Shown one piece after another: positions 938 through 55,633 of a DNA stretch of 64,000 nucleotides. The notes beneath the pieces are model-generated. The model saw nothing but the letters and a program-made list of their open reading frames with translations, did no database searches and was not told the origin of the DNA. Made by a program: the position numbers and the translations under genes. This stretch comes from Parcubacteria group bacterium Gr01-1014_13 (GTDB taxonomy: Bacteria > Patescibacteriota > Patescibacteriia > Magasanikbacterales > GWA2-37-8), in assembly GCA_007376295.1 (NCBI GenBank), contig VMGB01000003.1:71106-135105 (forward strand), in the 5' to 3' direction. The stretch's first letter is position 1. The number at the start of each line of letters is the position of its first letter.

Positions 938-1138
938 AATTTACAATTATCTTATCAGCTTAAACCCAATTTGGCAACGATATGGCTTTACCTCTGGGGC
1001 TTGAAAATTATTATAAATAATGATATGCTTGGAACATTCACGGTATTAGTTTTGGACCAAAAATATTGCTCATTCAAAATTTATATGTTAAAATGAACTA
1101 ATAAATAATGCCCAGATAATTTATTTGATAGTTCAAAT

Positions 1139-1813
1139 ATGGCACGATTCGCAGACCACCAAAAAGCCCTTACGCTCCGAAAAGAAGGAATGAGTTATAG
1201 TCAAATAAAAAATATATTAAAAATTGGCAAGGGGACTTTAAGCCACTGGCTTCAAGATTACCCATTATCAAAAGAGCGTATTAAAGAATTAAGAGATGGT
1301 GGCGGCAAGAGAATTGAAAAGTACAGAGAAACAATGAGACAAAAAAGAGGGGCTAGATTAAAAGTAGTTTATGAATCCCAAAAAAAGATTCTCCTACCTC
1401 TAAATAAAAGAGAACTATTAATTGCCGGTCTGTTCCTTTATTGGGGCGAGGGATCAAAAAGCCACGCTACCGACCTTAGACTTTCAAATACAGACCCTTC
1501 AATGATAAAATTTTTTATAAAATGGCTAACCGTATGTCTACAGGTACCGAAATCTAAATTAAAGGTACAACTGCACTTATACAGCGACATGCATATCGAT
1601 AAAGAAATTAATTTTTGGTCTAACACCTTAAATATACCTGACACACAATTTATAAAACCCTATATAAAAACTAGTTTGCTAACAGACATAAACCATAAAG
1701 GTGGTTTTGGTCATGGTACATGTAATATAAAAATTGGAAATGCAAGACTGTCTGAAAAAATACTAATGACATTAAAAGTAATTACTGATAAATATACAAA
1801 ATTGCGCCTGTAA
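1139..1813 (+). CDS. hypothetical DNA-binding protein with an N-terminal HTH and a C-terminal degenerate LAGLIDADG-like segment; possible homing-endonuclease-like selfish gene
   Basis: The N-terminus (LRKEGMSYSQIKNILKIGKGTLSHWL) looks like a resolvase or sigma-region-4 HTH. ELLIAGLFLYWGEGSK resembles a LAGLIDADG block. Its stop codon lies inside the 5' end of the adjacent tRNA. Confidence 0.35.
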   Translation: MARFADHQKALTLRKEGMSYSQIKNILKIGKGTLSHWLQDYPLSKERIKELRDGGGKRIEKYRETMRQKRGARLKVVYESQKKILLPLNKRELLIAGLFLYWGEGSKSHATDLRLSNTDPSMIKFFIKWLTVCLQVPKSKLKVQLHLYSDMHIDKEINFWSNTLNIPDTQFIKPYIKTSLLTDINHKGGFGHGTCNIKIGNARLSEKILMTLKVITDKYTKLRL

Positions 1814-1876
1814 CTCATCGGTTAGAGTGTCACGCTTATAACGTGGAAGCAGATGGTTCGACTCCATCCAGGCGCA
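1804..1876 (+). tRNA. tRNA-Ile, anticodon TAT (UAU), 73 nt, CCA not encoded
   Basis: Manual cloverleaf: acceptor GCGCCTG/CAGGCGC (7 Watson-Crick pairs), D-stem ACTC/GAGT, anticodon stem TCACG/CGTGG with loop CTTATAA, 5-nt variable loop, T-stem GATGG/CCATC with loop TTCGACT, discriminator A. Confidence 0.75.
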
Positions 1877-18261: not shown

Positions 18262-18295
18262 AAAACGTCCCAATAAAGGGGCGTTTTTGTTTTGC
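18262..18295 (+). terminator. rho-independent terminator
   Basis: AACGTCCC-AATAAA-GGGGCGTT followed by TTTGTTTTG. Confidence 0.45.
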
Positions 18296-18299
18296 ATAG

Positions 18300-18718
18300 T
18301 ATAAGCCGAATTTTGTTTCCGACTTGCGTCGGATGATAATCATTTCTCTAGGATTGATATTGCTACCAATCTCAAGCGAGCGAACTTTTTATCTCCTTTA
18401 GAGAGACTCTGCTCTTGCGTCCAAGTAAGGATTTAGCCGTTTCATCTCTCGACTTACTACCTCCATCGAGAGTTAAGCAATCATTTTTGATTTCCCAAAA
18501 ATCTGAGGTTTGCTTTCTTTTTCTTTTCAAAAAAAGACGTTTCTGCTCGCACCTTGGGCCTTGCGGCCAATGGGGGTTACCCACTACTTTTCTCCGACGT
18601 GACCTTCGGAGTGAACGTTCGGACTTTCCTCCCTGACTTACATCAAGGCGATCATCACTATGCGCCGATATATTATCATAAATTAGGTGTTTTGTCAAGA
18701 TAAAAAGTAAAAAAAGAA
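18300..18718. ncRNA. structured non-coding leader region preceding the hairpin array; possible ncRNA
   Basis: No credible ORF. It holds multiple strong hairpins: CCGAC-TTGC-GTCGG, CTCTCGA…TCGAGAG, a C(UUCG)G tetraloop hairpin CCGACGTGACCTTCGGAGTGAACGTTCGG, and TGGCC-TTGC-GGCCA. Its 3' end carries TTGTCAA 21 nt before the first array unit. Confidence 0.3.
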
Positions 18719-42375: not shown

Positions 42376-42424
42376 TATTAAAACAAAAAATCAGCATCTC
42401 TGCTGTTTCTTGTCTCTCCAAATG

Positions 42425-42496
42425 TGTCCTCGTTAGGAGTCGAACCTAAATTTCCGGCTTCGCAGGCCAGTGTCCTATCCATTGAACGACGAGGAC
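42425..42496 (-). tRNA. tRNA-Arg, anticodon GCG as parsed, 72 nt
   Basis: RC reads GTCCTCG-TC-GTTC-AATGGATA-GGAC-A-CTGGC-CTGCGAA-GCCGG-AAAT-TTAGG-TTCGACT-CCTAA-CGAGGAC-A. The anticodon loop is CTGCGAA. Confidence 0.7.
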
Positions 42497-49772: not shown

Positions 49773-49844
49773 GTGTTCTCAAGAGGAATTGAACCTCTAT
49801 TTCCAGCTTCGGAGGCTAGTGTTCTATCCGTTGAACTATGAGAA
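49773..49844 (-). tRNA. tRNA-Arg, anticodon CCG, 72 nt
   Basis: RC reads GTTCTCA-TA-GTTC-AACGGATA-GAAC-A-CTAGC-CTCCGAA-GCTGG-… with T-loop TTCAATT and acceptor TGAGAAC-A. Confidence 0.8.
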
Positions 49845-49852
49845 CAGAAGAC

Positions 49853-55559: not shown

Positions 55560-55631
55560 GCCCCTATAGTTTAATGGATAGAATATCAGGCTTCGAACCT
55601 GAAGATGGGAGTTCGATTCTCTCTGGGGGCA
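55560..55631 (+). tRNA. tRNA-Arg, anticodon TCG, 72 nt
   Basis: GCCCCTA-TA-GTTT-AATGGATA-GAAT-A-TCAGG-CTTCGAA-CCTGA-AGAT-GGGAG-TTCGATT-CTCTC-TGGGGGC-A. Confidence 0.8.
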
Positions 55632-55633
55632 CA

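Follow-up and report, generated by a model that had tools for sequence, protein, structure and literature searches.

Brok-Volchanskaya et al. are said to have described in Nucleic Acids Res in 2008 a free-standing homing endonuclease gene, T4 SegB, that lies inside a phage tRNA cluster. Among proteins of the LAGLIDADG type, I-DmoI carries the catalytic residues Glu117 and Lys120, the equivalents of which have been lost in the regulator WhiA (PMC3384342). As to the tRNAs themselves, an isoleucine tRNA with the anticodon UAU, tRNA-Ile(UAU), was known in 2013 from nine tilS-less species in three clades (PMC3575796). Here we analyse a 224-residue open reading frame (ORF) of Parcubacteria group bacterium Gr01-1014_13 that ends inside a tRNA-Ile(UAU) gene. 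The stretch of DNA that was analysed, 64,000 nucleotides (64 kb) at positions 71,106 to 135,105 of contig VMGB01000003.1, is called the window, and all positions refer to it. The ORF protein is on record (exact match) as 'Uncharacterized protein G01um101413_748 [Parcubacteria group bacterium Gr01-1014_13]'.

Judged from sequence comparisons, we consider it somewhat better than an even chance, with a probability of about 0.55, that the ORF is a free-standing gene of the homing-endonuclease type which uses the tRNA gene as a landmark and has no specific role in the decoding of AUA. This reading is built on the domains of the protein, on the strict linkage of its family to tRNA genes and on syntenic loci at which the same tRNA is found without the ORF.

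Domains and tRNA linkage of the ORF family

The protein begins with a helix-turn-helix (HTH) of the transposase/resolvase type. HTH_23 was found in all family members scanned against Pfam (26/26, best E 3.8e-7), the matching HTH proteins in the PDB include Cgl2762 and the PAI subdomain of Sleeping Beauty, and an AlphaFold model places three helices at residues 2-37. For the remainder of the protein, hmmsearch was run on all 177,635 PDB sequences with a profile built from 100 diverse members. The top match was I-DmoI (E 4.6e-5 to 1.4e-4), all other matches being HTH proteins. Compared by hhalign, the C-terminal profile and domain 2 of I-DmoI matched over 77 columns with a probability of 89.8% and an E value of 1.8e-6; the alignment covers the LAGLIDADG helix, a short beta1-beta2 hairpin and helix 2 with 27-36% identity. 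I-CreI was tried as a relative as well and was dropped, the family profile giving no meaningful alignment with it.

The motif segment LAGLFLYWGEG, which carries the metal-binding-type Glu104, belongs to the most conserved part of the family, with little or no variation at G97, Y101, E104, G105 and K107. In the alignments with I-DmoI, Glu104 falls on Glu117 and Lys107 on Lys120, and each is conserved in at least 90% of the superfamily. AlphaFold modelled the full-length protein with a pLDDT of 83.7 and the C-terminal domain alone with 94.4, in the order alpha-beta-alpha-beta-alpha-beta-beta-alpha, and a weak hhalign alignment to domain 1 of I-DmoI indicates that about 40 residues have been inserted between strands 3 and 4. 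We conclude that the C-terminal domain is a putative LAGLIDADG derivative with intact active-site residues and an altered second half, its fold being unconfirmed. The earlier note had described the ORF as an HTH plus a degenerate LAGLIDADG-like segment, and both parts of that description are borne out by these matches.

Searches with NCBIfam, PHROGs and PADLOC returned nothing beyond the HTH, and a reading of the ORF as a defence gene was rejected in the absence of a PADLOC match. The family thus has no Pfam, NCBIfam, PHROG or PADLOC model for its C-terminal domain, and no description of it was found in the literature searched.

Approximately 2,950 close homologues of the ORF exist, all of about 224 residues, and those with a named source all come from Patescibacteria. 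A search of 1.84 billion cluster representatives yielded 189 clusters at E <=1e-30 and 5,162 at E <=1e-3, so that the close family is nested in a much larger superfamily. When one genome per species was scanned with a pattern, at least 294 genomes proved to contain relatives. The 80 loci fetched from these span many Parcubacteria classes, Microgenomates and genomes labelled Berkelbacteria; a cultured member of the Patescibacteria, Candidatus Microsyncoccus archaeolyticus, has the ORF-tRNA pair as well (locus L031).

In 75 of the 80 loci ARAGORN located a tRNA-Ile(UAU) that follows the ORF immediately on its 3' side and lies on the same strand. Four of the remaining five end at a contig edge, and the fifth, L068, was discounted as an exception, its tRNA being cut by a masked run of N and not missing. 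The ORF therefore abuts tRNA-Ile(UAU) in every informative locus (76/76). As a baseline, only 5.5% of the other ORFs in those loci stop at a tRNA on their own strand, and the juxtaposition is far beyond chance.

The TAA of the ORF occupies tRNA positions 8-10, and a stop codon lies on these positions in 29 of the 75 loci, while most of the others stop 2-30 nucleotides (nt) upstream of the tRNA. At L148, a locus without the ORF, ftsH likewise ends inside the tRNA. The overlap is incidental, a by-product of the U8-A9-R10 that all tRNAs share and that reads as a TAG or TAA stop. The earlier note had taken the overlap as typical of selfish insertions; the stop on positions 8-10 was confirmed, the overlap itself lost its significance, and tight abutment emerged as the rule.

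Upstream of the start codon, TTGyTC-N17-TAtAAT-GAAC recurs at a distance of about 75 nt in the majority of homologous loci, irrespective of which gene precedes it. A simple consensus promoter scan of the window did not list the corresponding pair of boxes (Table 1). The transcript is predicted to begin with a hairpin (UGAAC...GUUCA, -10.0 kcal/mol) that takes in the ribosome-binding region and closes 3 nt ahead of the AUG. An equivalent hairpin is found in most of 45 loci with a mean z of -2.87 against shuffled sequences, and in 42 of the 45 the -13..-6 region lies within the 3' arm. RNAalifold applied to the 5' untranslated region (UTR) recovered the outer six pairs only, conserved and one of them covarying, with inner stems that differ in register. 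The hairpin over the ribosome-binding site probably keeps expression of the ORF low. A 10-nt direct repeat flanking ORF and tRNA, GCCCAGATAA at 1110 and GCACAGATAA at 1874, was judged to be due to chance, since it was not seen in other loci.

Table 1. Coordinates of the ORF, the adjoining tRNA gene and their parts in the window
Feature	Position	Strand	Details and basis
Promoter-like site of the ORF	1066..1094	+	-35 TTGCTC 1066-1071, 17-nt spacer, -10 TAAAAT 1089-1094
5'-UTR hairpin UGAACUAAUAAAUAA ... UUAUUUGAUAGUUCA	1094..1135	+	inverted repeat, 15-nt arms, 87% complementary
ORF, 224 aa, HTH and LAGLIDADG-like nuclease-type domain	1139..1813	+	TAA stop 1811-1813
N-terminal HTH_23, transposase/resolvase-type, residues 1-41	1139..1261	+	Pfam, PDB profile, model
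C-terminal domain, residues 86-224, LAGLIDADG-like core with ~40-aa insertion between strands 3 and 4	1394..1810	+	PDB profile, hhalign, model
LAGLIDADG-like motif IAGLFLYWGEGSKS; segment IAGLFLYWGEGSK, residues 94-106, then Lys107	1418..1459	+	Glu104, Lys107 aligned to I-DmoI
Overlap of ORF 3' end and tRNA positions 1-10, 10 nt	1804..1813	+	ORF and tRNA coordinates
tRNA-Ile(UAU)	1804..1876	+	anticodon 1837-1839; discriminator A 1876; ARAGORN, Rfam, cloverleaf fold

Just 3' of the tRNA lies an ORF of 102 aa (1924-2232, + strand) whose N terminus is rich in lysine; it is a gene call in both contigs covering the region and gave no match in the family-library searches.

Empty sites, selection and relatives at other tRNAs

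A generic pattern retrieved at least about 70 tRNA-Ile(UAU) genes from metagenomes, and among the matches listed about 65 are without the ORF, many of them in phage-like tRNA arrays or on contigs with a GC content of 0.21 to 0.74. Four ORF-less loci with ample upstream sequence show the gene order of the Patescibacteria type, in which tRNA-Ile(UAU) is followed by tRNA-Val(GAC) (L093, L108, L148 and L155). In the first three of these ftsH abuts the tRNA, and ftsH is also found directly upstream of the ORF-tRNA pair in about 45 of 78 ORF-bearing loci. The gene order of L108 equals that of L007, L019 and L022 throughout (NYN-like, PNPase-like, a gene of about 390 aa, ftsH, tRNA-Ile, tRNA-Val, glycosyltransferase-like, RluD-like, L19; the labels are provisional and were read from N-terminal sequences) and its FtsH is 69% identical, but L108 alone lacks the ORF and has a spacer of about 85 nt followed directly by the tRNA. 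Between the empty loci and their nearest ORF-bearing neighbours FtsH identity is 68-72%, and the FtsH proteins of ORF-bearing loci differ by up to 52% among themselves, so the absences of the ORF are nested inside the clade. The presence of the ORF is thus polymorphic at a fixed site next to the tRNA, with L007, L019 and L022 occupied and L108, L093 and L148 empty. Another upstream context, a nucleotidyl transferase and PAP2, is shared by the window with L003, L010, L016 and L017.

In 73 of 74 loci the GC content of the ORF is below that of the flanking DNA (33.8% vs 41.4%, a difference of 7.6 points); in the window it has 0.32-0.355 vs 0.414 overall. In close pairs the ratio of nonsynonymous to synonymous divergence (dN/dS) of the ORF is 0.06-0.21, and that of the neighbouring ftsH is 0.03-0.10. 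The dS of the ORF amounts to about 0.55-0.67 of the FtsH dS in five of eight close pairs, and the identities of the two proteins are weakly correlated (Spearman 0.27), with outlier pairs such as one with 76% identity for the ORF and 49% for FtsH. Two of 78 ORF copies carry one in-frame stop each (L055 6220-6222 and L058 6253-6255), a TAA and a TAG that align by eye to Leu74 and Leu85, and the downstream tRNA is intact in both cases. Both stops are probably nonsense mutations, the copies being intact in other respects. The low GC content, the weak correlation with FtsH and these nonsense codons point to a foreign gene, and the dN/dS values indicate that the ORF is under purifying selection and encodes a functional protein.

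Side observations at these loci concern inteins. The FtsH ORFs of L006, L014, L018, L021 and L072 measure 1043-1503 aa, which is 400-900 aa over normal, and these overlong genes could contain inteins. In addition, gyrB upstream of the window (1176 aa, L001 902-4432) has an intein-splicing domain.

Relatives of the ORF are also found at other tRNAs. Extra paralogues lie just 5' of tRNA-Phe (L045), tRNA-Gly (L009) and tRNA-Arg(CCU) (L071), in single genomes each. Of nine distant relatives with 25-35% identity that were looked up, seven had usable context and all seven lie within 100 nt of a tRNA; five are placed at the 5' edge of a tRNA and share its strand, the tRNAs being Gln(UUG), Phe, Gly(UCC) and, in two cases, Gly(GCC). 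Of the other two, one is convergent and one divergent to its tRNA. Pairwise protein identities group the relatives by tRNA species. A scan of viral contigs, for which a closer alignment of the family served as query, added 21 relatives in IMG/VR, many on contigs of 100-527 kb. Eighteen of these lie within about 110 nt of a tRNA, and they sit inside tRNA arrays in either orientation. GenBank phages and plasmids were searched as well and yielded no relative. From such sequences and contexts, the subfamilies of this superfamily appear each tied to one tRNA species, in Patescibacteria as well as in the tRNA arrays of huge phages. The suggestion of the earlier note that the ORF is a selfish, endonuclease-type insertion beside a tRNA gene is therefore supported by syntenic empty sites, by relatives at other tRNAs and by phage arrays.

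Some high-GC relatives have two or more tandem HTH plus nuclease-like units per protein (L212 1497-3227 and L213; P0176, P0183 and P0241), which parallels the split of LAGLIDADG enzymes into single-motif and double-motif forms. One of these tandem-unit proteins runs into a convergent tRNA-Gln.

tRNA-Ile(UAU) and the decoding of AUA

ARAGORN called six tRNAs in the window, among them a tRNA-Ile with anticodon tat at 1804-1877. Against the Rfam tRNA model this gene, one nucleotide shorter at 1804-1876, scored 66.1 bits with a threshold of 29, the other five tRNAs reaching 50-69 bits. The predicted cloverleaf is clean with the anticodon loop CUUAUAA (-26.1 kcal/mol, z -2.7), the sequence shows discriminator A73, C4-G69, U12-A23, A37 and A38, CCA is not encoded, and compensatory changes occur in the stems of the orthologous tRNAs of the 75 loci. 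It passes as a true cloverleaf tRNA gene with a UAU anticodon, as had been read from the letters alone, and its sequence, structure and conservation mark it as a normal, functional gene of the host.

Of the isoleucine codons in the window 27% are AUA (327 codons, 19.5 per 1000), and 39 of 42 genes contain it, so a decoder of AUA is indispensable. Charging by IleRS and reading of this common codon are the presumable functions of tRNA-Ile(UAU). Within the 64-kb window, to which these negatives apply, a scan for the SGGxDS PP-loop motif found no tilS, ARAGORN found no CAU tRNA and hence no tRNA-Ile2(CAU), and there is no IleRS gene. The same motif scan over about 0.8 Mb of related loci found no tilS-type PP-loop ORF either; two SGGxDS matches were set aside as unrelated ORFs, provisionally serine hydroxymethyltransferase from their N-terminal sequence. 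Pairs of CAU tRNAs near tRNA-Ile(UAU) in other loci resemble, on a provisional look, initiator and elongator Met. The gene order tilS-hpt-ftsH is conserved in most bacteria. At the ftsH genes of the related loci this neighbourhood was not seen, and there was no PP-loop ORF within about 4 kb upstream.

The presence of tRNA-Ile(UAU) alone is no proof that TilS is absent, because some bacteria, namely certain lactobacilli, have both tilS and tRNA-Ile(UAU) (PMC3575796). In the literature searched, neither lysidine nor tRNA-Ile(UAU) was linked to Patescibacteria, Parcubacteria or the Candidate Phyla Radiation. The earlier note had called a UAU anticodon rare. This rarity is only relative, since at least 294 species genomes of Patescibacteria have the gene, all of them reached via the ORF alone; on these data, tRNA-Ile(UAU) belongs to the normal tRNA set of many lineages of Patescibacteria.

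Other observations on decoding were made along the way. Three of the six tRNAs in the window are tRNA-Arg with the anticodons GCG (42424-42496, - strand), CCG (49773-49845, - strand) and UCG (55560-55632, + strand), and tRNA-Arg(ACG) is not among the six called by ARAGORN; the related loci L017 and L022 also have tRNA-Arg(GCG). In most bacteria, CGU, CGC and CGA are read by an inosine-modified ACG tRNA (PMC3711424). The GCG/CCG/UCG set suggests a CGN decoding independent of TadA, which would follow the same logic of a hard-coded anticodon as UAU for AUA. Together, the isoleucine and arginine anticodons hint that translation in Patescibacteria hard-codes its anticodons and does without wobble-editing enzymes such as TilS and TadA.

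A full-length homologue of the ORF on the metagenome contig Ga0209340_1001048 (L094 2991-3647; GC 0.31, Patescibacteria-like) has in-frame TGA at the near-invariant W37 and W102 and TGG at the other two tryptophans, a sign that UGA may stand for Trp in this contig. In the window, Rfam located an RNase P RNA at 18290-18663 (- strand) with 100.9 bits vs a gathering score of 100, several of its helices being reduced or missing.

Competing explanations and known systems

In its architecture, the protein joins a transposase-like HTH at the N terminus through a long helix to a single LAGLIDADG-like domain, which keeps the metal-binding Glu and the catalytic Lys. With one such domain per protein, a homodimer is implied as its probable active form. 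If the ORF is a homing gene, the protein would recognise a tRNA-Ile(UAU) gene that is still unoccupied and cut at its 5' edge. With an occupied allele as the template, repair would then copy the unit of promoter, hairpin and ORF into the gap just upstream of the tRNA, where the ORF would often borrow U8-A9-R10 as its stop codon. The tRNA would be left intact, and the cost to the host would thus be little. It would be co-transcribed with the ORF and released by RNase P.

Several points weigh against this reading. Cleavage, the target site and homing are predictions. Matches to LAGLIDADG_3 and Hom_end of Pfam were weak (E 0.03-0.09) and limited to few members, and LAGLIDADG is not among the 25 Pfam families most frequently matched by 98 diverse members. 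Foldseek with the AlphaFold models returned no LAGLIDADG structure, the best matches being OmpA-like domains with a TM of 0.35-0.43; this miss may be caused by the insertion between strands 3 and 4. The boundaries of the insertion and the direction of gain or loss are unreadable, as FtsH of the closest empty and occupied loci is only 69-72% identical. Occupied alleles would lack immunity if the target were wholly inside the tRNA. The loci were collected by peptide and DNA patterns, which biases the sample to conserved members. Finally, wherever members of the Ile(UAU) subfamily are present, they are almost fixed, rarely decayed and under purifying selection, which would fit a domesticated host function too.

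Such a function is the core of the main rival, according to which the ORF is a former homing endonuclease that has been domesticated in the manner of WhiA, is immobile and controls its own promoter and the downstream tRNA or tRNAs. The HTH present in all members would suit a regulator, as would the inverted repeat TGAAC...GTTCA, which together with the conserved promoter lies over the transcription start and is a possible operator; the same holds for the selection on the ORF and for the unbroken linkage with few pseudogenes. In addition, the tRNA probably depends on the promoter of the ORF, because the ORF fills the whole upstream spacer. We nevertheless regard this explanation as unlikely, since the superfamily has retained Glu104 and Lys107, which WhiA has lost, closely syntenic lineages have the same tRNA without the ORF, extra copies occur sporadically before other tRNAs, either orientation relative to the tRNAs is found in phage arrays and the GC content of the ORF is systematically low. 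The protein could also act on RNA, as a maturase-like helper that binds the adjacent pre-tRNA and assists in folding it, in processing its 5' end or in protecting it. There are LAGLIDADG proteins that have turned into maturases (PMC3384342), and the constant adjacency, the matching of subfamilies to tRNA species in cells and phages and the probable co-transcription would agree with this. The same tRNAs do without the protein in related genomes, though, the two genes lie on opposite strands at P0183, P0256 and several phage loci, the residues for DNA cleavage are kept and no RNA-binding domain was detected in family-library searches, which together make such a helper improbable.

A role of the ORF in AUA decoding is very unlikely, because loci without the ORF exist and its relatives adjoin other tRNAs. 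In its explicit form, the ORF would be a modification or specificity factor of tRNA-Ile(UAU) that replaces TilS. The perfect linkage of the subfamily to this tRNA and the richness of the ORF in AUA (10 of its 19 Ile codons) speak for it, but it is largely refuted by the ORF-less tRNA-Ile(UAU) loci in related Patescibacteria and by the many in metagenomes, the relatives adjoin tRNAs for Gly, Phe, Gln, Arg and Val, none of which pose such a decoding problem, and the family-library searches found no similarity to any modification enzyme; we give it next to no weight. Equally little credit is due to an insertion-sequence transposase, the HTH_23 being in that case part of an IS630/Tc1-like element that targets tRNA genes. 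The HTH does resemble those of IS630, IS3 and Sleeping Beauty transposases, but the matches are limited to residues 1-80 and neither a DDE nor any other catalytic domain of a transposase was found, the ORF is not flanked by terminal inverted repeats or target duplications, and the 64-kb window holds one copy only. For want of terminal repeats and a transposase domain the transposon reading was rejected.

Beyond the single locus, we tentatively consider, with clearly less than even confidence, that the ORF represents a new nuclease superfamily of at least 5,000 clusters at 50% identity which combines an HTH with a modified LAGLIDADG domain and homes to the 5' edges of tRNA genes, each subfamily being tuned to its tRNA. 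Under this proposal, sharing between Patescibacteria and huge phages may drive the exchange and reshuffling of tRNA genes, the nuclease may limit its own expression by burying its ribosome-binding site in the hairpin, and RNase P may, by cutting those co-transcripts in which U8-A9-R10 provides the stop, leave an mRNA without a stop codon. If true, this would add a large new branch of the LAGLIDADG type with an unusual architecture of N-terminal HTH, single domain and inserted subdomain. Its niche at the 5' flank of tRNA genes would also be unusual, because integrases normally use their 3' ends. Every subfamily would come with a natural and known target region, which would make the superfamily attractive for enzyme discovery.

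Among the known systems, the second domain of I-DmoI is the best and only non-HTH match of the family profile in the PDB, and its Glu117 and Lys120 are matched by Glu104 and Lys107 of the ORF. I-DmoI, archaeal and intron-encoded, has two domains, whereas the ORF has one together with the N-terminal HTH, the long helix and the insertion of about 40 aa, and it resides inside an rRNA intron, whereas the ORF is free-standing beside a tRNA gene and its fold has not been confirmed by Foldseek. WhiA (DUF199), the regulator of Gram-positive bacteria, shares with the ORF the LAGLIDADG-type domain and the HTH, the chromosomal location and purifying selection. It has two LAGLIDADG domains and a C-terminal HTH and has lost the acidic and the basic residues that serve in catalysis (PMC3384342), whereas the ORF has one domain, an N-terminal HTH and both catalytic residues. 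Moreover, WhiA is a universal single-copy host gene, whereas the ORF family is patchy and tied to tRNA genes.

On the side of decoding, Gr01-1014_13 resembles Mycoplasma mobile with its tRNA-Ile2(UAU) and the other bacteria without tilS in being a small-genome bacterium that encodes a UAU anticodon for AUA in its genome (PMC3575796). For M. mobile, experiments have shown that tilS is absent, that U34 is unmodified and that the IleRS is adapted. In decoders of this type, adaptation of IleRS to UAU would mean a Trp-to-Arg change or a eukaryote-type enzyme. The nine tilS-less carriers of 2013 compare with at least 294 Patescibacteria species genomes here.

T4 SegB, finally, is reportedly a parallel in arrangement, being a free-standing endonuclease gene among tRNA genes for which a conserved tRNA region serves as homing landmark. 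It is, however, a GIY-YIG enzyme, whereas the ORF family combines an HTH with a LAGLIDADG-like domain, and it is phage-borne, whereas the ORF family is mainly cellular, in Patescibacteria, and keeps to a fixed 5' edge with one tRNA species per subfamily.

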